Shown here: piece after piece, positions 2,924 to 52,601 of the stretch
Layout of the letters: the number at the start of each line of letters is the position of its first letter
How positions within the stretch are numbered: the first letter of the stretch is position 1
Assembly (NCBI GenBank): GCA_026686805.1
Contig: GCA_026686805.1_3949.1
Strand: one strand, 5' to 3'
Origin: a phage
Length of the DNA: 52,601 nucleotides
Translations under genes and position numbers: made by a program
The notes under the pieces: model-generated
Told to the model about the DNA's origin: nothing
Database searches by the model: none
Seen by the model: only the letters and a program-made list of their open reading frames with translations

Positions 2924-3472
2924 TTAAATCAGTGTTTCCAGAACTGTTTTTAGGGATGACTTAGTTGTCTGATAAAAATGAGTGAATCCATTGTTGTTAT
3001 CGAATATCTGCATCATGATATCATCTCCCTTGATTGGGTACACTCGGATATCATAGTGAAAACCATTAAAGACACAAGAACCACTACAGAATGAACTAAA
3101 ATCGTCTACTGAGATGTACTCTTCATGTCCTGTGATTTTTATACAAATACCTTTACTCGGTCTCTTAGGGTTGATATCTTCCATCACAGACATACTCTGT
3201 CCACCAAGAGATACCATAGTGACCACTTTACGGTTCTTCTGTCTAAAGTACATCTTAACTTTCTGCAAAGTGTCTTCATAGAACGGATAAGACCTTTCTA
3301 CAAAGATTCCTTCAAGTGGCTCTTTACCATTTTCAACTTCTCTGTTATGCCGTACTGCAAAGATAATTTGTTCGAACCAGTCAAGATTTTCTTCGGAGAG
3401 TGCTTCCCGAATATCACCCCAATCAAGGACTAGGTAGTTACCTTCAACATCTTTTAAGTTATCTTTTTCCAT
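2924..3472 (-). CDS. hypothetical protein
   Basis: track ORF 2924..3517 begins with TTG and overlaps the upstream gene; internal ATG at 3472 has a GGTGTGA RBS-like sequence and removes the overlap, so the start is uncertain. Confidence 0.45.
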   Translation of the reverse strand: MEKDNLKDVEGNYLVLDWGDIREALSEENLDWFEQIIFAVRHNREVENGKEPLEGIFVERSYPFYEDTLQKVKMYFRQKNRKVVTMVSLGGQSMSVMEDINPKRPSKGICIKITGHEEYISVDDFSSFCSGSCVFNGFHYDIRVYPIKGDDIMMQIFDNNNGFTHFYQTTKSSLKTVLETLI

Positions 3473-3485
3473 AGCTATCACACCA

Positions 3486-3950
3486 TTATCGTAAAACTTG
3501 GTAAGCTGGAACTGCAAACTTGTTGCCGTTGTTCTTAATGAGGTCTTCTTCTGTTACTAAGAATGTAATCCCACACAAGTGTGTGTATTGGCTATCATAC
3601 TCAAATATTTTAAGTAAGTATTTACCATTGTGATAAACAGATTCTACTACACCTTTTGCAACAATCTTTCCAGTCTTGAAATCTTTAAGAGGGTATACAT
3701 TACCAACTTTAGGGACTGTTTTCATCTCAGGTTCTTTTAGTTTCTCACTAACTTCTACATCACCTAGTAAGTGAGAACTCTCAAACGCTACATATTGCAT
3801 ATAAGCTTCTGAGCATTCCCAGATAAAACAATGTACAAGAATCTTAGCAGCATGTCTTGAGCAATTCAACTTATCACAAATTTCTTTGTACATTTCATCT
3901 TTAGTTGAGTTGTCAAGCATTGCTTTTCGAACTGTTTCTTTAATTTTCAT
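3486..3950 (-). CDS. hypothetical protein (154 aa)
   Basis: ORF from track, tightly packed in leftward operon. Confidence 0.5.
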   Translation of the reverse strand: MKIKETVRKAMLDNSTKDEMYKEICDKLNCSRHAAKILVHCFIWECSEAYMQYVAFESSHLLGDVEVSEKLKEPEMKTVPKVGNVYPLKDFKTGKIVAKGVVESVYHNGKYLLKIFEYDSQYTHLCGITFLVTEEDLIKNNGNKFAVPAYQVLR

Positions 3951-12576: not shown

Positions 12577-12653
12577 CTCTGTTTAGCTCAGCTTGGTAGA
12601 GCGTTCCGTTTGGGGCGGTAAGGCCGGAGGTTCAAGTCCTCCAACAGAGACCA
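12577..12653 (+). tRNA. tRNA-Pro (anticodon TGG)
   Basis: hand-folded cloverleaf: acceptor ctctgtt/aacagag, D-arm gctcagcttggtagagc, anticodon loop ttTGGgg, T-loop ttcaagt, CCA encoded. Confidence 0.65.
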
Positions 12654-12660
12654 AATTAAT

Positions 12661-12738
12661 GTTCCAGTAGACAAAATGGTAAAGTCACCACTCTTTCAAA
12701 GTGGATATCTGAGGGTTCAAATCCCTTCTGGAACGCCA
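12661..12738 (+). tRNA. tRNA-Glu (anticodon TTC)
   Basis: acceptor gttccag/ctggaac, anticodon stem ccact/agtgg, loop ctTTCaa, T-loop ttcaaat, CCA encoded. Confidence 0.75.
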
Positions 12739-12745
12739 GTTTTGA

Positions 12746-12817
12746 CAGAAGACCAATTACAGCAAACTTAATCTACTCATCTGACACGAAATCGGACAAA
12801 GAAGATATTTGGTCTGG
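12746..12817 (+). repeat. bipartite spacer element copy a (CAGAAGACC-nnWTWCAGCAA ... GGTCTGG)
   Basis: seen directly; 5' block 12746-12765, 3' block 12811-12817; agacc/ggtct can pair. Confidence 0.5.
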
Positions 12818-12828
12818 TCATTGAGAAT

Positions 12829-12905
12829 TGCGGGTATAGAGAAAGGGCGTCTCACATGTCTCATTAGCATGGTATCGGCAGGTTCGACTCCTGCACCCGC
12901 CTCCA
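12829..12905 (+). tRNA. tRNA with CAT anticodon (Met or Ile-lysidine type)
   Basis: anticodon stem catgt/gcatg, loop ctCATta, T-arm gcagg-ttcgact-cctgc, CCA encoded; acceptor has a mismatch at one end so boundaries +/-1. Confidence 0.6.
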
Positions 12906-12911
12906 ATTTTG

Positions 12912-12971
12912 CAGAAGACCGTATTCAGCAACAAAATACTTTTTGCGGATAAAAGAAAAAACACGGTCTGG
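12912..12971 (+). repeat. bipartite spacer element copy b
   Basis: gcagaagaccgtattcagcaa ... acacggtctgg. Confidence 0.5.
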
Positions 12972-12982
12972 CAATGTATTAA

Positions 12983-13059
12983 GGTTAGGAAGCACATAAG
13001 GTATGTGCGGTCGCCTGTTAAGCGAATGGCACAGGGTTCGAATCCCTGACTAACCGCCA
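12983..13059 (+). tRNA. tRNA-Asn (anticodon GTT)
   Basis: acceptor ggttagg/actaacc, D-stem gcac/gtgc, anticodon loop ctGTTaa, T-arm caggg-ttcgaat-ccctg, CCA encoded. Confidence 0.7.
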
Positions 13060-13067
13060 AATTAAAT

Positions 13068-13155
13068 GTGTCGTTATCCCGTAGATGGTAGCGGTGGGGA
13101 CTGTAAATCCCTTGTCATTGAGACTCGGTAGGTTCGACTCCTACACGGCACACCA
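13068..13155 (+). tRNA. tRNA-Tyr (anticodon GTA), long variable arm
   Basis: acceptor gtgtcgt/acggcac, anticodon stem gggga/tccct, loop ctGTAaa, long variable arm, T-arm gtagg-ttcgact-cctac, CCA. Confidence 0.7.
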
Positions 13156-13160
13156 ATAAA

Positions 13161-13237
13161 GGCTATGTAGTTTAACTGGAGAAAATACTCCCCTGTCACG
13201 GGAGATGATGTGAGTTCAAGTCTCATCGTAGCCGCCA
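13161..13237 (+). tRNA. tRNA-Asp (anticodon GTC)
   Basis: acceptor ggctatg/cgtagcc, anticodon stem ctccc/gggag, loop ctGTCac, T-loop ttcaagt, CCA. Confidence 0.75.
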
Positions 13238-13298
13238 ATTTTGAGAGGGCTATTTAGCCCCTCCCTTAAAGAGTTCTTACGAGTATTCTTTAAAGGAG

Positions 13299-13372
13299 CA
13301 GAAGACCAAATACAGCAAGAATGTATGAAATTTCAAGCCAATTTAATTTTGAAAATTTAAAACTTGGTCTGG
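13299..13372 (+). repeat. bipartite spacer element copy c
   Basis: agcagaagaccaaatacagcaa ... aacttggtctgg. Confidence 0.5.
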
Positions 13373-13385
13373 CTCAACAAATTTA

Positions 13386-13517
13386 CAGAAGACCGTTTAC
13401 AGCAAAACTTAAACAATCTATTTCTCCGGTAAAGAAAAGGCGAAGGTTCGATTCCTTCACTCGGCAGATGTCGAGTTGGTGTAATGGTAGCACTTAAGAT
13501 GATAAACAACGGTCTGG
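13386..13517 (+). repeat. bipartite spacer element copy d, enclosing a tRNA-like relic
   Basis: acagaagaccgtttacagcaa ... aacaacggtctgg; interior holds T-arm/acceptor-like and acceptor/D-arm-like segments. Confidence 0.5.
13442..13495 (+). other. tRNA-like relic in reversed half order (T-arm + 3' acceptor strand immediately followed by complementary 5' acceptor strand + D-arm)
   Basis: gaagg-ttcgatt-ccttc + actcggc then gtcgagt + ggtgtaatggtagcac; no complete cloverleaf can be drawn. Confidence 0.35.
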
Positions 13518-13666
13518 TAATTATCTTTGTAGATAAGTTATTAAGCTTACCTGTGAGTATGCGACCACAAAGGGTGAAAGGGTAAATTCTAGATTTAAAC
13601 CCAACAAGGCACATCGCTACAGACCTTAAGCAAGTCTGGGTAGCTTATCTACAAAGGTAATTTAAT

Positions 13667-13742
13667 GGAAGTGTAGCAGAATGGTGATGCGGCAGACTTT
13701 TAATCTGACAGGCGATGGGTTCGAATCCCTCCACTTCTACCA
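13667..13742 (+). tRNA. tRNA-Lys (anticodon TTT)
   Basis: acceptor ggaagtg/cacttct, anticodon loop ctTTTaa, T-loop ttcgaat, CCA; T-stem weak in my fold. Confidence 0.6.
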
Positions 13743-13746
13743 AAAT

Positions 13747-13823
13747 GGTTCAGTCGCAGATAAGGTAATGCAAGGGTCTCATAAGCCCTATGAATGTGGG
13801 TTCAATTCCCATCTGAACCTCCA
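13747..13823 (+). tRNA. tRNA with CAT anticodon (Met, initiator or Ile-lysidine type)
   Basis: acceptor ggttcag/ctgaacc, anticodon stem agggt/gccct, loop ctCATaa, T-loop ttcaatt, CCA. Confidence 0.7.
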
Positions 13824-13831
13824 ATTTATCG

Positions 13832-14326
13832 GTGATACTTATGATTTGTGCTAACAAAGATTGCGGAAATGAAGCCGTTAAAGGTGGAAAATTTTGCTCA
13901 CGCTCTTGTTCTGCAAAAGTGAACAACAAGAAACACCCAAAGAGAAGTCAGGAAGGCTCTTGCCATTCATGCGGAAAGGTAACGCCAAAAGCAAGAAAAT
14001 ACTGTGACGAATGTATTTCAGGTGGAGTCATGAAAAAACATAAGACCCATCATGAAAAAAGCAAAGCTAAATCACTGCACGTTAAAAAGTCTCGTGATAG
14101 ACTGAAGAAGGCTTTAGTTGATTACAAGGGTGGTTGTTGTTCAATTTGTGGTTACAATAGGTGCATAAAGGCTCTAGAGTTTCACCACTTAGACCCTAAC
14201 ACAAAAGACTTCACAGTAGGTCAAAAACACTACTCACTGGCTACAATGCAGTCTGAAGTTGATAAGTGTGTCTTGCTTTGTGCAAATTGCCATAGAGAAG
14301 TACACGAAGGGGTAACAATGCTGTGA
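13832..14326 (+). CDS. HNH homing endonuclease (Cys-rich N-terminus, C-terminal HNH motif)
   Basis: C-terminal ...CSICGYNRC...LEFHHLDPNTKDF...CVLLCANCHREVHEG = HNH signature; embedded in tRNA array; stop codon overlaps start of tRNA-Ile. Confidence 0.75.
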   Translation: MILMICANKDCGNEAVKGGKFCSRSCSAKVNNKKHPKRSQEGSCHSCGKVTPKARKYCDECISGGVMKKHKTHHEKSKAKSLHVKKSRDRLKKALVDYKGGCCSICGYNRCIKALEFHHLDPNTKDFTVGQKHYSLATMQSEVDKCVLLCANCHREVHEGVTML

Positions 14327-14395
14327 AAGCACATATGGATGTGCATTCGGCTGATAACCGAAAGGTAGAAGGTTCGAATCCTTCTCACAGTACCA
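14320..14395 (+). tRNA. tRNA-Ile (anticodon GAT)
   Basis: acceptor gctgtga/tcacagt, D-stem gcac/gtgc, anticodon stem ttcgg/ccgaa, loop ctGATaa, T-arm gaagg-ttcgaat-ccttc, CCA. Confidence 0.75.
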
Positions 14396-14410
14396 ATTTC
14401 AATAAAGTTG

Positions 14411-14439
14411 TTGACATTGAGATGCGACTACTTTATAGT
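14411..14439 (+). promoter_or_regulatory. sigma70-like promoter TTGACA-17-TATAGT inside the tRNA array
   Basis: -35 ttgaca 14411-14416, 17-nt spacer, -10 tatagt 14434-14439. Confidence 0.5.
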
Positions 14440-14445
14440 AACCTT

Positions 14446-14610
14446 AGTTTTCGTTGCGTAGCGTCTATTTTGCAAATTTAAAATAAATGCAAACGACAAT
14501 GTTTTTCTGGCAGTAGCTTGATAGGCTAAACACCAGTGAGGTCTTCCAATCCCTCATCAAAGAATTTGGCGTACTAGCCCACGGTATGATTAATAAGGTG
14601 GGCATCTTTA
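14446..14610 (+). ncRNA. candidate small structured RNA downstream of promoter (no coding potential, no tRNA fold)
   Basis: hairpins tttgca/tgcaaa and gcccac(14577-14582)/gtgggc(14598-14603) followed by atcttt; purely structural inference. Confidence 0.2.
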
Positions 14611-14643
14611 AGGGCTTTCTAAGAGAGTCTTTAAAGATAATTA

Positions 14644-14725
14644 CGGGGCGTATCTCAGCGGTCTTCTAAACCGCCGTTAACCGAGTAAGTGGAGTATGCG
14701 GGTTCGAGTCCTGCCGCCTCGACCA
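14644..14725 (+). tRNA. atypical tRNA-like gene, possible tRNA-Arg (anticodon TCT); D-arm not placeable, 23-nt region between anticodon and T arms
   Basis: acceptor cggggcg/cgcctcg, perfect anticodon arm gcggt-ctTCTaa-accgc, T-arm gcggg-ttcgagt-cctgc, CCA; geometry non-canonical. Confidence 0.35.
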
Positions 14726-14868
14726 ATTTAGTTAGCAGATTACTTAGACGACCTTATCGGGTCTCCGTGTAAGGAGGTGGTCTGTATCTCATGTTTTCCA
14801 GAACATGTAAATAATCTGAGAAGGGGCTTTACAGTGTTGAGATAATACGGTAAGCTTCGAATTATAGT

Positions 14869-14951
14869 ATGGGACGATGTTAAGACTCTAAGGCATGAGC
14901 AACGGCTTCCAACACCGTTTCAAAGGGGTTCAACTCCTCCGTCCCATGCCA
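14869..14951 (+). tRNA. atypical tRNA-like gene, possible tRNA-Trp (anticodon CCA); 7 extra nt between acceptor and D-arm
   Basis: acceptor atgggac/gtcccat (7/7), anticodon arm acggc-ttCCAac-accgt, T-loop ttcaact, CCA. Confidence 0.35.
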
Positions 14952-14964
14952 AAGTCTTATTAGG

Positions 14965-15052
14965 GGTAGGTAGCGGCTAATGGTAGCCAAACTGTCTTGA
15001 AAACAGTTGCCACTGTAGAGATACGGTGAGGGTTCGACTCCTTTACTTACCG
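14965..15052 (+). tRNA. tRNA-Ser (anticodon TGA), long variable arm
   Basis: acceptor ggtaggt/acttacc, perfect anticodon stem actgt/acagt, loop ctTGAaa, 20-nt variable arm, T-arm gaggg-ttcgact-ccttt; CCA not encoded. Confidence 0.7.
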
Positions 15053-15310
15053 CCTAATAAGATTTTAAAGCCAAGCTTCATTCGGATGTTGCTTTGGTAT
15101 CCCTCGTGTATTGTCGTACACACTGATAAAACACCTAGTAGGTGTCACGGAGAAGAGATAATATCAAGCTCTCCAAAGGTTCTAGTCACCGGATTAAACA
15201 AGACTATGCAAAGACCTTTTTAGGTCTTTTTAGAGGGCTTCTAAGGTTATTACGGCTTGTTGTGGAACCTTGTTGCTTAGGTTCTTAGAAGTTCTCTAAA
15301 AAGATTTAAT

Positions 15311-15388
15311 GGGAGATTGACGGTAATTGGTAAACCTATCTCGCTTAGAACGAGATGTTTGAGGGTTCGAATCCCTTGTCTCCTACCA
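15311..15388 (+). tRNA. tRNA with TAG anticodon (Leu by anticodon), short variable loop
   Basis: acceptor gggagat/gtctcct, perfect anticodon stem tctcg/cgaga, loop ctTAGaa, T-loop ttcgaat, CCA; class I architecture unusual for Leu. Confidence 0.55.
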
Positions 15389-15395
15389 AATTAAT

Positions 15396-15471
15396 GCAGG
15401 TGTAGCAAAATGGTTATGCGGCTGACTCTTAATCAGTAAGACGATGGGTTCAATTCCCTCCACCTGTACCA
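15396..15471 (+). tRNA. tRNA-Lys (anticodon CTT)
   Basis: acceptor gcaggtg/cacctgt, anticodon stem gctga/tcagt, loop ctCTTaa, T-loop ttcaatt, CCA. Confidence 0.65.
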
Positions 15472-15476
15472 AAAAT

Positions 15477-15552
15477 GGGGTCATAGTTTATATGGTTAAA
15501 ATTCGAGTTTTGCAAACTTGGGAACTGAGTTCAATTCTCAGTGACTCCACCA
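15477..15552 (+). tRNA. tRNA-Ala (anticodon TGC)
   Basis: acceptor ggggtca/tgactcc, anticodon stem cgagt/acttg, loop ttTGCaa, T-loop ttcaatt, CCA. Confidence 0.65.
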
Positions 15553-15558
15553 ATTAGT

Positions 15559-15633
15559 GCATCCATAGTTTAAACGGGAAAATTACAGTCTTCCAAACTG
15601 AGGTTGAGGGTTCGATTCCCTCTGGATGCTCCA
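15559..15633 (+). tRNA. tRNA-Gly (anticodon TCC)
   Basis: acceptor gcatcca/tggatgc, anticodon loop ctTCCaa, T-arm gaggg-ttcgatt-ccctc, CCA. Confidence 0.7.
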
Positions 15634-15640
15634 AATTAAT

Positions 15641-15716
15641 GCTCCTATCGTATAATTGGCTATTACGGTTGCCTTGTAAGCAACTTATCAGGGTTCGAAT
15701 CCTTGTGGGAGCACCA
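15641..15716 (+). tRNA. tRNA-Thr (anticodon TGT)
   Basis: acceptor gctccta/tgggagc, perfect anticodon stem gttgc/gcaac, loop ctTGTaa, T-loop ttcgaat, CCA. Confidence 0.75.
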
Positions 15717-15718
15717 AT

Positions 15719-15811
15719 TCAGAGGTCAAGTGAAAGACCGCTGGTGTCAACTGAAGACCGTAACAAATTCCACGGAGTTGAGTTAGCGGCACAACTTCAG
15801 ACCTCTTTCAC
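15719..15811 (+). other. structured spacer element (inverted repeat agaggtc ... gacctct, internal gaagaccgtaacaaattc block)
   Basis: seen directly; related to the CAGAAGACC-containing spacer elements; function unknown. Confidence 0.3.
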
Positions 15812-15886
15812 ACTCGCTTAGTTTATATGGTAAAACATCACCCTTACAAGATGAAGAAAAAGGTTCAAGTCCTTTAGTGAGTACCA
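15812..15886 (+). tRNA. tRNA-Val (anticodon TAC)
   Basis: acceptor actcgct/agtgagt, anticodon stem tcacc/gatga (one mismatch), loop ctTACaa, T-arm aaagg-ttcaagt-ccttt, CCA. Confidence 0.65.
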
Positions 15887-15887
15887 T

Positions 15888-15965
15888 GTTCCAGTATCCC
15901 AATTGGCAGAGGATGCAAGCTCAAACCTTGTATTAGTGACGGTTCGAATCCGTCTTGGAACACCA
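15888..15965 (+). tRNA. tRNA with CAA anticodon (Leu by anticodon), short variable loop
   Basis: acceptor gttccag/ttggaac, anticodon stem gcaag/cttgt, loop ctCAAac, T-arm gacgg-ttcgaat-ccgtc, CCA. Confidence 0.55.
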
Positions 15966-15981
15966 ATTTTAGGAGAACACT

Positions 15982-16089
15982 ATGAGCAATAAGTCAATTG
16001 CAAAAAAGTTTAGAGCGTCATACCTAAACAGACGTAAAAACAAAGTTTGTGAAAAACTGTATGGTGTTCTCGTAGGTAAGCAGGATTAG
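15982..16089 (+). CDS. possible small ORF (35 aa, basic) overlapping the 5' end of tRNA-Arg
   Basis: AGGAG RBS 6 nt upstream of ATG; below the track's 60-aa cutoff; overlap with tRNA makes it doubtful. Confidence 0.2.
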   Translation: MSNKSIAKKFRASYLNRRKNKVCEKLYGVLVGKQD

Positions 16090-16155
16090 TTCAAATGGAT
16101 AGAGCAACAGTCTACGAAGCTGTTAATAGGGGTTCGAATCCCTTATCCTGCACCA
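16080..16155 (+). tRNA. tRNA-Arg (anticodon ACG)
   Basis: acceptor gcaggat/atcctgc, D-arm gttcaaatggatagagc, anticodon stem acagt/gctgt, loop ctACGaa, T-loop ttcgaat, CCA. Confidence 0.75.
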
Positions 16156-16174
16156 ATTTAAAGAGGCTATTTAG

Positions 16175-16732
16175 ATGAGATATTTGAAGTATGCTTCATG
16201 GATTTTCTTAGCTTTGTTAGAGCCATTTGCAGCAATCTTAGCAGTTATCTTAGCACCTTTTGTAGTTCCATTCTACAGTGAGAAGAAAGGACACTTACCT
16301 TTCGGGTTCAGATGGATGGAGACATATGACAACCCAATTGATGGTGATGAAGGTCACGTTAAAAGATGGGCTAATATCAGATGGATTGGTAAACTAGGTG
16401 TCTACATGCAAAGAGTCGGATGGCTCTGGAGAAACAAAGCTTATAACTTCTCTTACCATGTATTAGGAAGAGATGTAAAAGATGTTACTAAGTGGAAAGG
16501 TAATATCAACGTAAGTTCTGACCCTGAAGATAATCAGACAGGTTATCTACTAATGTGGAACAGTAATGCTTGGGGATTATTCGCTTTTATCCCATCAATT
16601 AAAATCTTTGGTAAACAATTTTACTGGAGAATTTATATTGGATGGAAACTAAAAAGTGTTGTCCCAGAAGAAAGAGCATTCTCAAGGGAAAGAGTTATGT
16701 TGGCATTCTTTATTCATCCACTGAGAAAGTAA
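16175..16732 (+). CDS. hypothetical protein with hydrophobic N-terminus (185 aa), embedded in tRNA array
   Basis: ORF from track; N-terminal hydrophobic segment WIFLALLEPFAAILAVILAPFVVPF. Confidence 0.5.
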   Translation: MRYLKYASWIFLALLEPFAAILAVILAPFVVPFYSEKKGHLPFGFRWMETYDNPIDGDEGHVKRWANIRWIGKLGVYMQRVGWLWRNKAYNFSYHVLGRDVKDVTKWKGNINVSSDPEDNQTGYLLMWNSNAWGLFAFIPSIKIFGKQFYWRIYIGWKLKSVVPEERAFSRERVMLAFFIHPLRK

Positions 16733-16740
16733 AGATTTAA

Positions 16741-16816
16741 AGGGGATTAGTTTACAAGGTTAAAACCTCGGTCTTTGAAATCGAAGAAGTTGGTTCAATT
16801 CCAACATCCCCCGCCA
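16741..16816 (+). tRNA. tRNA-Gln (anticodon TTG)
   Basis: acceptor aggggat/atccccc (1-72 mismatch), anticodon stem tcggt/atcga, loop ctTTGaa, T-arm gttgg-ttcaatt-ccaac, CCA. Confidence 0.65.
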
Positions 16817-16818
16817 AT

Positions 16819-16897
16819 GCTCCATTACTCCAATTGGCAGAGAGGCCAGACTTAAAATCTGTGTTATGTATCGGTTCGAATCCGATATGGAGTACCA
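16819..16897 (+). tRNA. tRNA with TAA anticodon (Leu by anticodon), short variable loop
   Basis: acceptor gctccat/atggagt, anticodon stem caga/tctg, loop ctTAAaa, T-arm atcgg-ttcgaat-ccgat, CCA. Confidence 0.5.
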
Positions 16898-16902
16898 AAT
16901 TT

Positions 16903-16978
16903 AGCGGCATAGCATAACTGGCAATGCAGCAGTCTCTGAAGCTGTCTTATTAAGGTTCAAATCCTTATGCCGCTGCCA
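16903..16978 (+). tRNA. tRNA-Gln (anticodon CTG)
   Basis: acceptor agcggca/tgccgct, D-stem gcat/atgc, anticodon loop ctCTGaa (stem with two G-U pairs), T-arm taagg-ttcaaat-cctta, CCA. Confidence 0.55.
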
Positions 16979-17009
16979 CTTCTAAGGATTCTTACGAGAG
17001 TCCTTAAAT

Positions 17010-17085
17010 GTGGCCTTATCATAAACGGTAATGACCCATGCTGTGAACATGGTCTATACGGGTTCAAATCCCGTAGGTCACCCCA
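17010..17085 (+). tRNA. tRNA-His (anticodon GTG)
   Basis: acceptor gtggcct/aggtcac, perfect anticodon stem ccatg/catgg, loop ctGTGaa, T-arm acggg-ttcaaat-cccgt, CCA. Confidence 0.7.
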
Positions 17086-17091
17086 ATTTAT

Positions 17092-17167
17092 AGTCCAAGT
17101 AGCTTATATGGTTAAAGCGCGTGTCTGAAAAACATGAGAAGAGTGTTCAAATCCCACTGGACTACCA
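17092..17167 (+). tRNA. tRNA-Phe (anticodon GAA)
   Basis: acceptor (t)agtcca/tggact(a), anticodon stem cgtgt/acatg, loop ctGAAaa, T-loop ttcaaat; 5' boundary +/-1. Confidence 0.6.
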
Positions 17168-17183
17168 ATTTCAAAGGTGCTTA

Positions 17184-17918
17184 ATGAAAGAGATGACAGA
17201 ACAAGGTAAGGAGATTTTCAATCTCTTAAAAACCGGTAAAGGGTTTTCTAACCCCCTTATTACTGGTGCAGCAGTTCTCGGTGGAACCGTAGCTGCCTCT
17301 ACATCACTTGTAAGCTCTATTAGCTCTGTATCAGACCCTACAGTAAAGGATAAGCTTGTTGCTGCTGGACTTACAACAGTTCTGCTTAACAGCTTTACCA
17401 CGAGTCTGACAAGCACTACATCAACTACCAAAACACTAACAGATTACGGTCAAAAATCCATTGATGAGTTTTCATCACGTATGCAGGTAGCAAAAGGTTA
17501 TTCTAATGTTATGGGTGCAGCAGGTGAACAAGTTGGCTGTACACCATTTAGTGGTATTATGGGTGTTGCTACAGAGTATGGTCAAAAAGCTATTGATACG
17601 ATTAACAGTGCACTAGATAGTGTTAATGGTGTGTTAAGTGACTTACAAGATGCTATTGACAAAGGTCTTGATACTATTTCTGATTTAGCTGAGCAAGCTG
17701 TTAGTAAGATTAATGAAGGTATTTCAAAAATTACAGCTTATGCAGATGAAGTTGTGCAGATGATTGAAGAAGAAGCTGCTCTTATTGCAGAGTACCTTAA
17801 AACGAATATCAATGGGTTCTTAGCAGGTATCTTACCAGACTGGTTTGATGATGCTTGTAAAACTGGTGTAATTGACACTATTGCAACACCAGAAATGAAG
17901 AACGCATTACAGAAATAA
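17184..17918 (+). CDS. hypothetical Ser/Thr-rich protein (244 aa), embedded in tRNA array
   Basis: track ORF 17121..17918 overlaps tRNA-Phe; ATG at 17184 has RBS aaaggtg and clears the tRNA. Confidence 0.5.
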   Translation: MKEMTEQGKEIFNLLKTGKGFSNPLITGAAVLGGTVAASTSLVSSISSVSDPTVKDKLVAAGLTTVLLNSFTTSLTSTTSTTKTLTDYGQKSIDEFSSRMQVAKGYSNVMGAAGEQVGCTPFSGIMGVATEYGQKAIDTINSALDSVNGVLSDLQDAIDKGLDTISDLAEQAVSKINEGISKITAYADEVVQMIEEEAALIAEYLKTNINGFLAGILPDWFDDACKTGVIDTIATPEMKNALQK

Positions 17919-17920
17919 AT

Positions 17921-18013
17921 GGAAGATTAACCCTAAAAGGTAAGGGAGCAGTTTGCTAAACTGCCAGTAGCTGAGAAATCGGTGTACCAGTTCAAGTCTG
18001 GTATCTTCCTCCA
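17921..18013 (+). tRNA. tRNA-Ser (anticodon GCT), long variable arm
   Basis: acceptor ggaagat/atcttcc, perfect anticodon stem gcagt/actgc, loop ttGCTaa, ~21-nt variable arm, T-arm accag-ttcaagt-ctggt, CCA. Confidence 0.75.
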
Positions 18014-18017
18014 ATTT

Positions 18018-18093
18018 GAATCCGTGACAGAAATGGCTATGTGCCTGTCTGCAAAACAGGTTTATAAGGGTTCGAGTCCCTTCGGATTCTCCA
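18018..18093 (+). tRNA. tRNA-Cys (anticodon GCA)
   Basis: acceptor gaatccg/cggattc, perfect anticodon stem cctgt/acagg, loop ctGCAaa, T-arm aaggg-ttcgagt-ccctt, CCA. Confidence 0.75.
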
Positions 18094-48767: not shown

Positions 48768-49001
48768 TCATAGCAACTCCAGAATATCAATACGTTCGCC
48801 TTTGAGTACTCCAGTACGGTCTTTTGCAATCTTACCGTCAACGATAAGGATGTGTGTAGACCTTAAAGCGTCGTTGTTAAAGGTTTTTACGAACTTGCTA
48901 GGCATGACTACAATGGACATCTCCTGAATTAACTCTGGAGTGTAGCAGTTATCATGAAGTTGCTGAATAACGTCTGCAAGTGTCATTTTTGATGTCTCCA
49001 A
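48768..49001 (-). CDS. hypothetical protein (77 aa)
   Basis: ORF from track. Confidence 0.4.
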   Translation of the reverse strand: METSKMTLADVIQQLHDNCYTPELIQEMSIVVMPSKFVKTFNNDALRSTHILIVDGKIAKDRTGVLKGERIDILELL

Positions 49002-49198
49002 TATTCAATATCTACAAGTTCTTGTGCAACACTTTTAAGGTTACTTTTAAGGAAAACTTTCTCACCACCAGGCAGGGAAGTGTTATCAATGAGTCTATTC
49101 ATTCTCTCAAACAACTTCTGCTTACGGTTCTTGATAGTTTCCTTTGAAGCACCTTTCATCATTGCTGCATGGGTTCTTCCACGGTGGCTCATAATCAC
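48983..49198 (-). CDS. hypothetical protein (71 aa)
   Basis: ORF from track. Confidence 0.4.
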   Translation of the reverse strand: MIMSHRGRTHAAMMKGASKETIKNRKQKLFERMNRLIDNTSLPGGEKVFLKSNLKSVAQELVDIEYWRHQK

Positions 49199-49243
49199 TC
49201 CTATATAAGATACAGTATAAGGTACTCTTCCATGAGCACCTTG

Positions 49244-49810
49244 TCAACTTAGTTTTGCAAACTCTCCGTGGAGTTTTACAGCAGCTTCACAGTAAGCTTT
49301 ATGGGCTTCTTCAGGTGTGTCATAGTAGCCTAATGACATCTTTTTACCTTTATAGCTTATTTGCGCAAACCACCTACCAGACTTCTTCTTCAGGCTTACA
49401 CCCTTATAGCCTGATTTATTGGTGGATAGTTTGCTTTTATTCCAAGCACTTTGGTAGTCATCTGCTTCTCTTAAGTTTACAATCCTGTTATCAAGGGAGT
49501 CTCCATTAATGTGGTCAATAACACCTTTCGGTAACCTACCATACACGTACAGCCATGCGAGTCTGTGTGCTTTATGTGCTTTCTTGTCAAAATAGATAGT
49601 AATCTGCTTATGACCAGTTGAGTCAATCTGGATGCTCCCCGCTACCTGTCCTGCGTACTTACTATTAAAGACTTTAACAGCCCTTGAGTCACCCTCTCTA
49701 CGAAGCCAAGTAAAGACCCCTGTTTCGGGGTCATAGTGTAGTAGCTCCTTTAAACGTTCTTGTGTAATCATTTTGTCACCATTAATGCACTTCCAACCAC
49801 GATTTACCAA
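49244..49810 (-). CDS. HNH homing endonuclease with C-terminal AP2-type DNA-binding domain
   Basis: HNH core ...KAHRLAWLYVYGRLPKGVIDHINGDSLDNRIVNLREA..; AP2-like ...GYKGVS...GRWFAQISYKGKKMSLGYYDTPEEAHKAY..; track start overlaps the polymerase 3' end, alternative ATG at 49771. Confidence 0.7.
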   Translation of the reverse strand: MVNRGWKCINGDKMITQERLKELLHYDPETGVFTWLRREGDSRAVKVFNSKYAGQVAGSIQIDSTGHKQITIYFDKKAHKAHRLAWLYVYGRLPKGVIDHINGDSLDNRIVNLREADDYQSAWNKSKLSTNKSGYKGVSLKKKSGRWFAQISYKGKKMSLGYYDTPEEAHKAYCEAAVKLHGEFAKLS

Positions 49811-52481
49811 CCTTACCAGTACCAGTTACCAGTGTTTCACTCTTTAGTCCTAAGTTCTTAGAGGCTTGCCCGTAATACCAATCAGTGACAGCCTTCACCT
49901 CTGCCGTCATACTTTCTGGGCATTCCCAACTCGTCTCGTCGTGATAGGAGCACAATAAACGAGCACCTATAGCTGGTTTGCGACCGTTCAACTTCATCAA
50001 ACCTTCGTCAATCATACGACGGCAAGCAAGGTTAATTGCCTCGTTCTGAATCTGACTTTCCGAACCCATGAGCAAATAATTCAACAACTTATGTGGAGAT
50101 TTACACCACAACCAAGCTCCAGCAACCTTTACAAAACCCCCTTTAGAGATTGCAGCAGTCTTACCAAACACCTCTTCAAGTGCCTTTTTAGTTGCTTTGT
50201 AGTCAGCTTCCAAGTCATCTAGCAGCTTCTTAATTTTAGGCAAACGAATAAAGTAAGTCTGTTTAGTCAGTGCACCTTCCTGAGTAGTTGCAGCTTTAAT
50301 CGTCTTAGCAAACTTCTCATCACCTGCACCGAACAGCAGTGCATAGATACCATTCTTAGCTTTTTTACGACCCTTACTAATCTCATGGAGAAGATTCTCA
50401 TCCTGAGTGGCTCGACAAGTCAAGATATCCTGCTCATCATTCAAGCTAAAGTAAATACTGTTCAGTGTGTGTGCATCAGTCCCTGAATAGACAACGTACA
50501 GGTCATTCTCAGAGTCATAGCGGAGGTACTTATCAATCTCTGGGTTGAGGTACTCATCAAAGTGTTTGCAGTAATAGCGTCCATCTTCTTGACGAATAAA
50601 CTCAATCTCTTCTTTACCTTGCGTTACCGCTTTGGTGAAGTCTTTGTCACCCATAAAGTTACAAAGAAGAACTAGCTGGGCTGAGTTCATATCTACAGAG
50701 ACGACGTTAGTACCTTCTTCACAAATCCACACTGCCCTCATTGGTTCCCCATAGACAGCAGCACCAGACGGTACGTTTACAATACCATATTGTGTCATAC
50801 GCCCAGTTGAAGTACCAAATACCATTGCACCAGCACTAAGGCGACCATCTGGACGAATCTGGTTTAACCAACCTTTTTCATCATCCTTTGAGTTCTCAAT
50901 GGTTCTGCGTCGGTGCATCAAAGTATAGTATTTAGCAATCTTCTGTCCAAGCTCACCTTCAATCGTATCATAAGAAGATTCAGTAAGTTTTGGTGAAGTA
51001 CGGATTAAGCAAGGTTCAAGCAAATCCGTGTACTTCTTCACAGACCAGTTATGTTCAATGTACTGGACACCTTCATGTTCAACATAACTCAAGCCACACC
51101 GTTCAACCATCTCCTGCCACTTAGGATGCTTTGTAATCATCTTTTTGTTGTCTTTGAAACGACAAACTTTGACAGGGCGACCATCTGAGTCTTTCTTGTA
51201 GTTCCAGTCATCTGGAATCCAACCAACTGACTTCAAGTAGTCTTTAACAACTGCTACCTGAGTCATACGAGAAACTTCAAACTCAATTGGTGTATATGGT
51301 GCATCAATCAATCCTGTGTAGCGACTTGACTCAAGTTCAAAGTGGTTAACAACATGGCTGTTATAGTACTTCACAGTTTTAACAGTTTTTACTGGCTTCC
51401 AGTCTTTGCATTTCTTACCAATCTTTGCATTCAACTCGTTGCAAATTGCACGAGCATCCTTCATTGCTACAAAACCTTCCTTGTACTCTTCACCAGTTAC
51501 AGAGTTGGTTGGTGTGTAGCAATTTCTCTTTTCAATGTTAAAAATCTTTGTAGTTGGCTTACCAAATGGCTTGATTTCGTATGTCTGCATCTCACCGTTA
51601 CGCACCTGTTGACGATACTTTGTCTTAGGATACTTGGTAATTCTCTTCAGTCCATCTGCATGACCAAATGTTTCAACATACTCATTCCAAGCTTTTGCAA
51701 ACTCTTCTCCAGTGACTTTACCTTTGGTCTTAATAGTTGGAGGAAGGTGTGGTTCAACCTCTGAAGCAAGCTCATTAGTCAACTTGTCAAGTTCCTTTAC
51801 ATGGAACTCCATAAGCTCTTTATCAGCTTTCCAACCATTGATAGCTTGTTGGCTCATCCAGAAAGATGTCTCTTTAGCTCGCATGTAAGTTTCATAAGTG
51901 TCTATACCACACTTCTTAAGCTTGAGATACTCGTTATCAAGTGCCCGTTTAGTTTTGGCGTTAATACGGATATCTTCTACAACACGAGTGAAGATTTCTG
52001 CATTCCACACACCCCAATGTTCAATCTCTGGTTTACGAACACCAACACGAGCACCCCATGCAGCCAAACCATGAGCACCTTTATAACCCTTTGGAGTTGG
52101 TCTATCCATCCACTGAACACGAGACTGGATAAGAGAGTCCTGAAAGAAATTACTCCACGGCTTACATTTTGGATTATCAAAGTTCCATAAATCCGGTGCA
52201 ATGTGATTGAAAACCCACCAGTCATAACCGAGACCATTATGGATACAAAGTCGTTTTGCCTTCAACGCAAACTCAATACCTTCACGTAAACCACCCTTAA
52301 TGTACTTAGTGTACTTGTGGCCGAGGATAGGCTCATCTGTGAAGACCCATACAGGTGGCTCTTCATCGTCAGATTTATAGTCTGCAAAAGCCATTACGTG
52401 AACTTTAGTGAACTCAAGGAGTAAACCATCAGTTTCTGTATCACCAACTAAATGTAAGTTTTTAAAATCTACGTTTTCCAT
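49782..52481 (-). CDS. DNA polymerase, family A (Pol I-like) with 3'-5' exonuclease domain
   Basis: exo motif I LVGDTETDGL near N-terminus; polymerase motifs VSVDMNSAQLVLL (A-like), RKKAKNGIYALLFGAG (B-like), CSYHDETSWE (C-like); start set at ATG 52481 (GAGGGAG RBS) rather than track 52511. Confidence 0.8.
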   Translation of the reverse strand: MENVDFKNLHLVGDTETDGLLLEFTKVHVMAFADYKSDDEEPPVWVFTDEPILGHKYTKYIKGGLREGIEFALKAKRLCIHNGLGYDWWVFNHIAPDLWNFDNPKCKPWSNFFQDSLIQSRVQWMDRPTPKGYKGAHGLAAWGARVGVRKPEIEHWGVWNAEIFTRVVEDIRINAKTKRALDNEYLKLKKCGIDTYETYMRAKETSFWMSQQAINGWKADKELMEFHVKELDKLTNELASEVEPHLPPTIKTKGKVTGEEFAKAWNEYVETFGHADGLKRITKYPKTKYRQQVRNGEMQTYEIKPFGKPTTKIFNIEKRNCYTPTNSVTGEEYKEGFVAMKDARAICNELNAKIGKKCKDWKPVKTVKTVKYYNSHVVNHFELESSRYTGLIDAPYTPIEFEVSRMTQVAVVKDYLKSVGWIPDDWNYKKDSDGRPVKVCRFKDNKKMITKHPKWQEMVERCGLSYVEHEGVQYIEHNWSVKKYTDLLEPCLIRTSPKLTESSYDTIEGELGQKIAKYYTLMHRRRTIENSKDDEKGWLNQIRPDGRLSAGAMVFGTSTGRMTQYGIVNVPSGAAVYGEPMRAVWICEEGTNVVSVDMNSAQLVLLCNFMGDKDFTKAVTQGKEEIEFIRQEDGRYYCKHFDEYLNPEIDKYLRYDSENDLYVVYSGTDAHTLNSIYFSLNDEQDILTCRATQDENLLHEISKGRKKAKNGIYALLFGAGDEKFAKTIKAATTQEGALTKQTYFIRLPKIKKLLDDLEADYKATKKALEEVFGKTAAISKGGFVKVAGAWLWCKSPHKLLNYLLMGSESQIQNEAINLACRRMIDEGLMKLNGRKPAIGARLLCSYHDETSWECPESMTAEVKAVTDWYYGQASKNLGLKSETLVTGTGKVGKSWLEVH

Positions 52482-52540
52482 TTTTACTCCCTCTAAAATC
52501 ATTAACCTCATACATTACTGCAAAAAATTATAAAAAGCAA

Positions 52541-52565
52541 GTTGACAATGTACTTGACAAGGTGT
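52541..52565 (+). promoter_or_regulatory. conserved element gttgacaaWgtacttgacaaggtgt with tandem TTGACA boxes (copy 2)
   Basis: near-identical to 10392-10416; upstream of polymerase start in a divergent region. Confidence 0.35.
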
Positions 52566-52601
52566 TAATCTTTGCGAAGTGGGTTTTTACTTAAAAGGTT
52601 A

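Follow-up and report, generated by a model that had tools for sequence, protein, structure and literature searches.

Immediately downstream of the family-A DNA polymerase gene in a Felix O1-like (Felixounavirus) genome segment lies an open reading frame that very probably is a free-standing homing endonuclease gene, whose product joins an I-HmuI-like nuclease module of the HNH (His-Me finger) type to a C-terminal AP2 domain. The segment, 52,601 nucleotides of phage DNA (contig GCA_026686805.1_3949.1), is referred to here as the window. A first-pass annotation had placed the endonuclease reading frame directly after the polymerase gene, and both genes are indeed found there on the minus strand (Table 1). 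The gene is of an ordinary, already annotated type, with near-identical genes described as HNH homing endonucleases. For the window alone, our analysis upholds a routine annotation and puts right a spurious gene overlap. Comparison with relatives revealed that the last 300 nucleotides of the polymerase gene derive from another genus-level lineage; the endonuclease gene thus flags a recombination boundary that lies within an essential gene. The locus is a clean natural example of a homing endonuclease gene at such a boundary.

Table 1 Features of the polymerase-endonuclease locus and of the other HNH gene in the window
Feature	Position	Strand	Description
Family-A DNA polymerase CDS	49782..52481	minus	899 aa plus TAA stop (49784-49782); Pfam DNA_pol_A
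Polymerase 3'-terminal ~300 nt	49785..50090	minus	Co-conversion-type tract; ancestry shared with endonuclease gene, from dS
Polymerase-endonuclease gap	49772..49781	minus	10 nt, TGGTGACAAA; contains GGTGA Shine-Dalgarno-like motif
HNH-AP2 gene, probable free-standing homing endonuclease	49244..49771	minus	175 aa plus TGA stop; Pfam HNH_3 and AP2, PHROG 99
Hairpin GACCCC-N6-GGGGTC	49715..49732	minus	Endonuclease codons 14-19; stem invariant in all slot alleles
HNH_3 nuclease core	49463..49573	minus	aa 67-103; Pfam, 44-sequence alignment, I-HmuI fold match
AP2 DNA-binding domain	49265..49414	minus	aa 120-169; Pfam AP2, phmmer, Foldseek; three-stranded sheet plus helix
Endonuclease last 25 codons	49247..49321	minus	DTPEEAHKAYCEAAVKLHGEFAKLS; near-identical, also as DNA, in each of the four allele groups
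Conserved spacer upstream of next gene	49193..49247	minus	Starts with TTGACA (49247-49242); right-hand cassette boundary
Next gene, Felix01p174-like	48983..49192	minus	69 aa, unknown function; PHROG 5180; right flank of slot
Second free-standing HNH gene	13832..14326	plus	Inside tRNA cluster; PHROG 2255 'HNH endonuclease' (3.8e-37); no Pfam match

Gene boundaries and domain architecture

The polymerase frame extends over 49782..52511 in the list of open reading frames; the start at ATG 52481 (MENVDF...) agrees with the 2700-nt CDS annotated in relatives. The protein matches Pfam DNA_pol_A with 54 bits (cut-off 34.3) and shares 99.5% amino acid identity with the wV8-type polymerase. The longest form of the endonuclease frame, 49244..49810, begins at a TTG codon. 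The first-pass annotation had raised a possible overlap of the two genes, which would amount to 29 nt and requires the start at TTG 49810. We rejected this start because ATG 49771 is conserved and is the annotated start in relatives. This ATG lies 10 nt past the polymerase TAA, behind the Shine-Dalgarno-like motif; the N-termini of all allelic relatives align with it, and the gene of phage SP22 (~97% identical, 528-nt CDS) is annotated from the equivalent position. The two genes are therefore adjacent, and the overlap is an artefact of the upstream in-frame TTG. Phages SUSP1 and SUSP2 have the same polymerase-endonuclease junction as the window. SP22, dune, and other phages carry the gene at 96-98% nucleotide identity under the name 'HNH homing endonuclease', and the best match in IMG/VR is 95%.

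The gene is free-standing, having its own ATG and stop and lying outside any Rfam intron in the window. Rfam searches of the window detected no group I intron, tRNAs being the sole matches, so the window polymerase gene is intron-less. These Rfam results, and the reading frame of the endonuclease, which differs from that of the polymerase, led us to reject a location of the gene within a group I intron or an intein. At its other end, the endonuclease TGA stop (49246-49244) is overlapped by the TTGACA of the downstream spacer, and this spacer is kept with or without the endonuclease gene across 265 phage records. We considered the TTGACA-led spacer as a sigma-70 promoter and rejected it: the promoter scan made no call there because the -10 element is weak. 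TTGACA occurs once within the window, and the element is therefore named merely a conserved spacer.

Profile searches support both domains at scores far beyond chance, as the first-pass reading of an HNH core plus an AP2-like DNA-binding domain had proposed. Pfam HNH_3 (PF13392) matches with 56.4 bits (cut-off 24.8, E 2.2e-15), Pfam AP2 (PF00847) with 47.7 bits (cut-off 33.3, E 1.9e-12), and PHROG 99 'HNH endonuclease' with an E value of 5.5e-74. The catalytic histidine in a D-H dipeptide and the conserved asparagines of the beta-beta-alpha-metal motif are present (IDHINGDSLDNRIVNLR). In an alignment of 44 homologues, D86, H87, N99, and N111 do not vary, and conservation of N108 is at least 90%. 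A survey at E<=1e-5 returned 7603 homologues; Pfam HNH_3 was found in all of the best 120 of these, and AP2 also in about two-thirds.

An AlphaFold model of the endonuclease (pLDDT 91.9) has I-HmuI (1u3e) as its best Foldseek match in the PDB (E 9.7e-4, probability 1.00, ~18% sequence identity); the global rmsd to 1u3e is high because the arrangement of the domains differs. A sequence-only search of the PDB returned AP2 matches alone and none for HNH, so that the relationship to I-HmuI is visible only through the predicted structure. AP2 is a DNA-binding domain of plant transcription factors. The AP2 part of the model consists of strands 125-128, 133-140, and 143-150 and helix 153-171, and it superimposes on AtERF1 (1gcc) with an rmsd of 1.2 Å across 51 columns (Foldseek, predicted model). 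WRI1 (3.8e-7), TEM1, and ERF096 are its phmmer matches.

Slot occupancy and mosaicism of the polymerase 3' end

The gene is not present at this position in all relatives. Among the 265 GenBank phage records, 155 contain the endonuclease gene and about 110 have an empty slot, in which the polymerase stop is followed by a 61-nt spacer and the next gene; wV8, O157 typing phage 12, and EcSzw-2 are examples. In occupied genomes the gene is inserted exactly between the polymerase stop and TTGACA, with junctions that are identical across genomes. Compared with the empty spacer, the occupied allele has the spacer bases TTAGTA replaced. Of 14 empty loci, 11 have a CTT leucine codon at the end of the polymerase gene; all 22 occupied loci lack it.

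The first-pass annotation had proposed comparing the polymerase 3' region with that of endonuclease-less relatives. That comparison uncovered, besides presence and absence of the gene, a different ancestry of the polymerase end. Between the window and SUSP1, dS is 0.99 for polymerase nucleotides 1-2400, 0.14 for the last 300 nt, and 0.125 for the endonuclease gene. Relative to the wV8-type polymerase the values are reversed, with 0.20 in the upstream part and 1.04 in the last 300 nt. The dS profile switches about 300 nt before the stop, and downstream of the switch it agrees with the value for the endonuclease gene. Suspvirus-like sequence thus covers the endonuclease gene together with the final ~300 nt of the polymerase; the remainder of the polymerase is not Suspvirus-like. 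The gene and the polymerase end form a tract of the co-conversion type, which supports mobility of the gene. The gene is missing from ~40% of relatives and moved jointly with the final ~300 bases of the polymerase, as is typical of a homing endonuclease.

One endonuclease-less contig, L009, matches the window polymerase tract from -300 to -22; the tract and the endonuclease gene are therefore separable. In the last 21 nt of the polymerase, the window differs from the otherwise matching L009 at seven synonymous positions, and the breakpoints between allele groups fall within the last ~12-21 nt. Ordinary homologous recombination between co-infecting phages, with no nuclease involved, could also account for the presence/absence pattern and the mosaicism.

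It is extremely improbable that the gene is an inactive relic, a homing endonuclease that has lost its cutting activity, is decaying, and is carried passively. Homing-cycle theory, as outlined in PMC1654191, predicts such decay after fixation. The slot, however, is not fixed in the population, none of the 22 occupied loci examined has a truncated reading frame, the catalytic residues are conserved, and dN/dS is far below 1.

Proposed homing and its target

Among A-type alleles dN/dS ranges from 0.13 to 0.19. This low ratio and the intact catalytic residues argue for an enzyme that is probably active, and purifying selection is equally compatible with an active selfish nuclease and with a domesticated function. 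Cleavage activity, the kind of cut (nick or double-strand break), and the exact target are inferred. In the homing model, the endonuclease gene would be transcribed together with the polymerase gene, and its translation would start at its own ATG behind the Shine-Dalgarno motif. During mixed infection the enzyme would nick or cut the matching locus in the genome of an endonuclease-less relative. Repair by recombination off the carrier genome would then copy the gene, along with a variable stretch of the polymerase 3' end, into the recipient.

From the positions at which sequences differ, the target is predicted to span the last ~7 polymerase codons and the polymerase-spacer junction. Candidate differences that would shield a carrier genome from its own enzyme are the seven synonymous changes relative to L009 and the replaced TTAGTA bases. 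The first-pass idea that the polymerase sequence itself is the target survives in part: terminal codons plus spacer are indicated, not a conserved catalytic motif of the polymerase. Our literature search found no report of cleavage, nicking, or homing by any Felixounavirus HNH-AP2 enzyme. Felixounaviruses are in wide use for biocontrol of Salmonella and E. coli and for typing. With many sequenced isolates for each state of the slot, they are convenient for measuring homing, competition between alleles, and effects on polymerase evolution.

A different target has to be weighed. Some relatives harbor a group I intron 555 nt before the polymerase stop (Rfam RF00028, 62 bits), and in a collaborative form of homing, such as has been proposed for pairs of a free-standing endonuclease and an intron, the endonuclease would cut intron-less polymerase genes at codon 714/715 (~50339/50340 in the window), mobilizing an ORF-less intron together with itself. 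All three ORF-less introns sampled (pSJ21, NS7, BPS17W1) are accompanied by a downstream HNH-AP2 gene, which is missing from four of the five genomes whose intron has an internal Endonuclease_7 ORF; this is a small sample, whose genomes are not phylogenetically independent. A split polymerase occurs together with an A' allele (87-88% identical) in many GenBank phages, and Barth et al. (PMC10448857) discuss arrangements of free-standing endonucleases with introns. We consider this reading very unlikely for the window. Its polymerase has no intron, and its intron-site sequence shows no differences from endonuclease-less, intron-less phages within 24 nt and only 1-3 within +/-45 nt. With the site essentially the same in the window, an enzyme aimed there would cut its own genome. 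The co-conversion-type tract, moreover, ends ~300 nt from the polymerase stop and does not reach the intron site at -558. The intron insertion site was accordingly rejected as a target of the window allele, the site being the same in endonuclease-less genomes. Our literature search found no paper joining 'Felixounavirus' and 'group I intron'.

Domestication of the protein is slightly more credible, and we still regard it as unlikely. The product would serve, for example, as a regulator that binds the TTGACA-led spacer or as a nuclease directed against competing phages or host DNA, and the patchy distribution would reflect ordinary gain and loss. The dN/dS of 0.13-0.19, a slot occupancy of 58%, the stop codon embedded in the conserved TTGACA element, a nucleotide-conserved hairpin in the 5' coding region, and the role of AP2 in plant transcription factors all fit this explanation. 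On the other hand, the HNH catalytic residues are intact, four divergent alleles swap at one site between conserved recombination arms, recombination breakpoints lie close around the gene, and many viable relatives have no gene in the slot. TTGACA, which such a regulator would bind, occurs only once in the window and was not called by the sigma-70 scan.

Allele groups and related systems

At least four divergent groups of HNH-AP2 alleles, with 40-58% amino acid identity, occupy the one slot. The middle of the gene, comprising the nuclease core and the AP2 sheet, is only 39-58% identical between groups at the nucleotide level. Both ends of the gene, by contrast, are conserved in their DNA sequence, at the 5' end over the first ~25 codons. 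The final alignment block is 100% identical in nucleotides, and the last 25 codons are a putative shared 3' homology arm. RNA folding of the polymerase-endonuclease junction gave a z-score of -1.24, which is not significant; the minimum-energy fold includes the conserved hairpin.

It is possible, though doubtful, that the site behind the polymerase gene in Ounavirinae is a multi-allelic locus for cassette exchange and not one of simple insertion. An allele would then oust its competitors by targeting the polymerase termini specific to them. The two arms (the first ~25 codons with the hairpin, and the last 25 codons plus the spacer) and the hairpin would be selected cis-elements that serve cassette swapping or throttled expression. 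In some lineages the cassette might also cooperate with the ORF-less polymerase intron.

HNH-AP2 homing endonucleases have been described from phages, cyanobacteria, and ciliates (Magnani, Sjolander and Hake 2004, as cited in PMC10448857). The window enzyme is a member of this family, with the same N-terminal HNH_3 and C-terminal AP2 and the same phage lineage. The family reportedly includes proteins of Felix O1 and RB49, and to our knowledge no target has been mapped for any of its Felixounavirus enzymes. I-HmuI, I-HmuII, and I-BasI are intron-encoded HNH nicking enzymes, and their introns lie within DNA polymerase genes of the Bacillus phages SPO1, SP82, and Bastille. The window enzyme resembles this group in its HNH core, its elongated multi-module mode of DNA binding, and its tie to a phage DNA polymerase gene. 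It differs in being free-standing downstream of the polymerase and in ending with AP2, whereas the I-HmuI group resides inside group I introns and ends with a helix-turn-helix.

T4 MobE, as described in PMC2790892, is encoded by a free-standing HNH gene next to nrdB, and its activity was shown experimentally. As with MobE and other T-even enzymes in that account, an HNH gene here lies between conserved genes, and its product would cut the neighboring gene in endonuclease-less relatives and drag flanking DNA along. In contrast to MobE, the window enzyme has other DNA-binding modules, its host gene is the polymerase and not nrdB, and its activity is presumed from sequence.

IPA-HNH genes, a related class that combines HNH with AP2, are enriched beside DNA polymerase genes (29% of them have this position) and mark boundaries of genetic exchange (PMC10448857). 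The study, which also treats 'HEG-islands' of ICP1-like phages, describes cognate endonuclease genes that are interchangeable at one location (Barth et al. 2023, PMC10448857). The window enzyme likewise combines HNH and AP2 beside the polymerase, at an exchange boundary, with alleles interchangeable in one slot. Unlike IPA-HNH, whose nuclease is too divergent for Pfam HNH_3 (PMC10448857), it matches HNH_3 strongly. Barth et al. make no mention of Felix O1-like phages (PMC10448857).

Six HNH endonuclease genes have been reported in Felix O1 (PMC3185647). Using tblastn (E<=1e-3), we found no paralogue of the HNH-AP2 protein in the window besides itself. The window does contain a second free-standing HNH gene, as the first-pass annotation had noted; it matches a different profile family (PHROG 2255) and is unrelated to the HNH-AP2 gene.

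The endonuclease gene and its junction with the polymerase gene

The first-pass annotation placed an HNH-AP2 homing endonuclease gene directly downstream of the family-A DNA polymerase gene. This was confirmed by the positions of the two ORFs, arranged in tandem on the minus strand, and by matches of the downstream ORF to Pfam HNH_3 (56.4 bits; cut-off 24.8), Pfam AP2 (47.7 bits; cut-off 33.3) and PHROG 99 'HNH endonuclease' (5.5e-74). Homing endonucleases that combine HNH with an AP2 domain have been established as a family (Magnani et al. 2004, cited through PMC10448857); the window's gene is a textbook case, and it has already been annotated in near-identical genomes. A megablast search with positions 48800–52601 (G+C ~39–42%) matched 261 phage records. 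Nearly all belong to Felixounavirus or elsewhere in Ounavirinae, the Felix O1-like myoviruses infecting Escherichia, Salmonella, Shigella and Citrobacter. The top matches, ~96% identical along the entire 3.8 kb, are Escherichia phages SP22, dune and JohannRWettstein, which contain the same gene pair annotated as 'DNA polymerase' and 'HNH homing endonuclease'. Our literature search found no description of the enzymology of this endonuclease. Related HNH-AP2 genes have a DNA polymerase gene as neighbour in 29% of cases, and they are markers of genetic-exchange boundaries (Barth et al., PMC10448857). Felix O1 was reported to lack introns and to have six HNH endonuclease genes (PMC3185647), HNH endonuclease regions vary among Felixounavirus genomes (PMC9951933), and the Felixounavirus nrdD gene is split by an endonuclease gene (PMC4837284).

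Alignment of 44 homologues revealed that D86, H87, N99, and N111 are invariant and N108 nearly so, all within IDHINGDSLDNRIVNLR. The AlphaFold model is confident (pLDDT 91.9, pTM 0.80), and its closest PDB match, with E 9.7e-4 and prob 1.00, is I-HmuI (1u3e), the HNH homing endonuclease encoded in the DNA polymerase intron of phage SPO1. At the C-terminus, the sheet and helix can be superimposed on the AP2 domain of AtERF1 (1.2 Å); WRI1, TEM1, and ERF096 were already found by sequence search alone. The homologue family comprises 7603 proteins at E<=1e-5; among the best 120 of these, all contain HNH_3 and about two-thirds contain AP2 as well.

The possible overlap of the two genes did not hold. 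The junction reads ...GAA GTG CAT TAA TGGTGACAAA ATG ATT ACA CAA..., with a GGTGA motif in the gap. The genes abut without overlap because this ATG lies 10 nt past the polymerase stop, is aligned with the N-terminus in all allelic relatives, and begins the endonuclease CDS (528 nt) annotated in SP22. An overlap of 29 nt requires a TTG start, which the conserved ATG and the SP22 annotation rule out. The polymerase most likely starts at ATG 52481 (MENVDF..., 899 aa), the right-hand limit in the first-pass annotation, which yields the length annotated in relatives. The window does contain a second free-standing HNH gene, as had been claimed; it lies between tRNA genes of a 24-tRNA cluster (12577–18090). 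A Pfam search with this ORF returned no match, and no sequence relationship to the HNH-AP2 endonuclease was found.

Features of the polymerase-endonuclease region, the second HNH gene, and polymerase inserts in relatives
Feature	Position	Strand	Description
Polymerase ORF	49782..52511	minus	909 aa; Pfam DNA_pol_A match
Endonuclease ORF from TTG	49244..49810	minus	188 aa
Hairpin GACCCC-N6-GGGGTC, then TTTACTT	49715-49732	minus	Inside endonuclease ORF; D-P-x-x-G-V codons
Conserved 55-nt spacer before next gene	49193-49247	minus	Contains TTGACA
Second free-standing HNH endonuclease ORF	13832-14326	plus	164 aa; Cys-rich; PHROG 2255 'HNH endonuclease' at 3.8e-37
Polymerase inserts in relatives (collected loci L005, L006, L007)	L005:3086-3369; L006:3083-3387; L007:~3056-3863		ORF-less or with Endonuclease_7-family ORF

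A variably occupied slot downstream of the polymerase gene

We assembled 37 loci containing the polymerase 3' end from GenBank and IMG/VR. In fourteen, no gene follows the polymerase, and a 61-nt spacer (TTAGTATTGACAAGGTGCTCATGGAAGAGTACCTTATACTGTATCTTGTATAGGAGG...) separates its stop codon from the ATG of the next gene. The endonuclease gene of occupied genomes lies exactly between the polymerase stop and TTGACA, in which its TGA stop is embedded (window 49246–49244 within 49247–49242). A 129-nt census probe, consisting of the endonuclease gene's final 75 nt and the spacer, matched in its entirety in 155 of 265 phage records, and therefore ~58% of sequenced relatives are occupied. The gene is missing from the slot in ~110 of the 265 records, which match the spacer portion only and have nothing annotated there. 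Full-length copies of the window's own allele type are present in 58 records. The 55-nt spacer before the next gene occurs once in the window and is 92–100% conserved across most of the 265 records. Within it, an imperfect inverted repeat (CCTTATAC...GTATAGG) lies shortly before the AGGAG ribosome-binding site.

Slot occupants fall into at least four allele groups, all of which retain the HNH motif and AP2 domain. Group A includes the window and the Suspvirus phages SUSP1 and SUSP2 (95% amino acid identity), with sub-groups at 87% (A') and 75%; group B is ~55% identical to A, and groups C and D stand at ~50%. The window's protein is 36–49% identical to homologues from unrelated phages, which are about as similar to it as groups B–D. 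Nucleotide identity between groups is 39–58% mid-gene, 60–84% in the first 25 codons, and 71–100% in the last 35 codons; the final 25 residues, DTPEEAHKAYCEAAxKLHGEFAKLS, are almost invariant. Because the middles are divergent, the ends are conserved, and every Ounavirinae homologue recovered adjoins the polymerase on its downstream side, the slot appears to behave as a cassette whose arms are conserved. Barth et al. (PMC10448857) give a similar account of cognate endonuclease genes that are interchangeable at one location. An exception to the downstream position occurs in two distant relatives, 84.5-kb Ounavirinae contigs (L028, L029) with a polymerase only ~63% identical, where an HNH-AP2 homologue (38–40% identity) lies immediately upstream of the polymerase (positions 722–1177).

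Across four allele groups, 21 of 21 slot endonuclease genes have an identical hairpin stem, four synonymous third positions included, and the loop varies. HNH-AP2 homologues from unrelated phages have variable codons here and have lost the stem. The hairpin, which was flagged by a terminator scan, may act in attenuation or expression control, or may be a hotspot for conversion.

One metagenome, IMG/VR 3300045988, contains coexisting Felixounavirus contigs with an empty slot, with B-, C-, and D-type genes, and with an intron-containing polymerase (L009, L012, L013, L016, L019, L020, L022, L023, L026, L030, L033, L036). It is a natural population where homing and competition between alleles may be under way.

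Recombination tract and putative target site

Ungapped comparison of the 2700-nt polymerase gene revealed a mosaic. Counting back from the stop codon, the window differs from endonuclease-less, wV8-type polymerases by 1–8 nt per 100 up to ~-300 and by 15–17 per 100 thereafter. Against SUSP1 and SUSP2, which carry the same endonuclease allele, it differs by 7–21 per 100 upstream and 2–5 per 100 in the last 300 nt. Values of dS between the window and SUSP1 are 0.99 for the first 2400 nt of the polymerase, 0.14 for the last 300 nt, and 0.125 for the endonuclease gene; between the window and wV8-type phages, dS is 0.20 upstream and then 1.04. These reversed profiles show a recent history common to the endonuclease gene and the 3'-terminal ~300 nt of the polymerase (~49785–50090), distinct from that of the rest of the polymerase. 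Such a tract is what homing co-conversion would be expected to produce. The downstream limit lies within the spacer, since the next genes differ. A dN/dS of 0.13–0.19 indicates purifying selection on the endonuclease gene, which led us to reject a decaying relic. Judged from sequence comparison, presence and absence at the slot, the several alleles, the co-conversion-type tract, and purifying selection support the first-pass reading of the gene as a homing endonuclease.

From ~-85 to -22, contig L009, which lacks the endonuclease gene, matches the window polymerase exactly; between -300 and -85 it has six differences. Seven of the last 21 nt differ, all synonymously (TCG/AGC, TTG/CTT, GTG/GTA, CAT/CAC). 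A C-type carrier, L001, switches at the same place, and L019 and L020, B- and C-type carriers with a common upstream tract, diverge only from ~-15. The CTT Leu codon near the polymerase end is present in 11 of 14 empty loci and 0 of 22 occupied loci; empty sites typically have CAC-TAA/TGA and then TTAGT(A/G). The repeated breakpoints and the allele-specific codons among the last ~7 polymerase codons suggest that recognition or cleavage spans the polymerase terminus and spacer. Insertion of the endonuclease gene would destroy this putative target in carriers.

Polymerase introns in relatives

Together with the allele-cassette structure and the conserved hairpin, a possible interplay with the polymerase intron of relatives is the only aspect that might repay more work. 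Some relatives have a polymerase split 555 nt before the stop, which GenBank annotates as two 'DNA polymerase' CDSs. The insert in pSJ21 and NS7 is a group I intron (Rfam RF00028, ~62 bits); EC6 has a ~800-nt insert at the same position with an Endonuclease_7 ORF (Pfam 5.9e-20), and all inserts have the same 3' end. A literature search pairing 'Felixounavirus' with 'group I intron' found no paper. The pairing of a free-standing HNH-AP2 gene with an ORF-less polymerase intron resembles collaborative homing. Indeed, the downstream HNH-AP2 gene accompanies ORF-less introns in 3 of 3 loci and is missing in 4 of 5 with an internal ORF, a small, non-independent sample. However, this explanation fails for the window because its polymerase lacks the intron (the insertion site, ~50339/50340, is empty), phages with neither endonuclease nor intron have essentially the same sequence around the site, and the conversion tract ends short of the site.

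A second, much more divergent polymerase 3' allele, spanning the last ~1000 nt, was observed in five loci (L008, L025, L026, L027, L031), where it accompanies A', C, and D endonuclease alleles. From ~-1000 it has 14–49 mismatches per 100 nt, and its last 185 amino acids are ~76–79% identical to those of the window. Silent changes are dense around the intron insertion site; the allele may be resistant to the intron endonuclease or may reflect a longer conversion tract.
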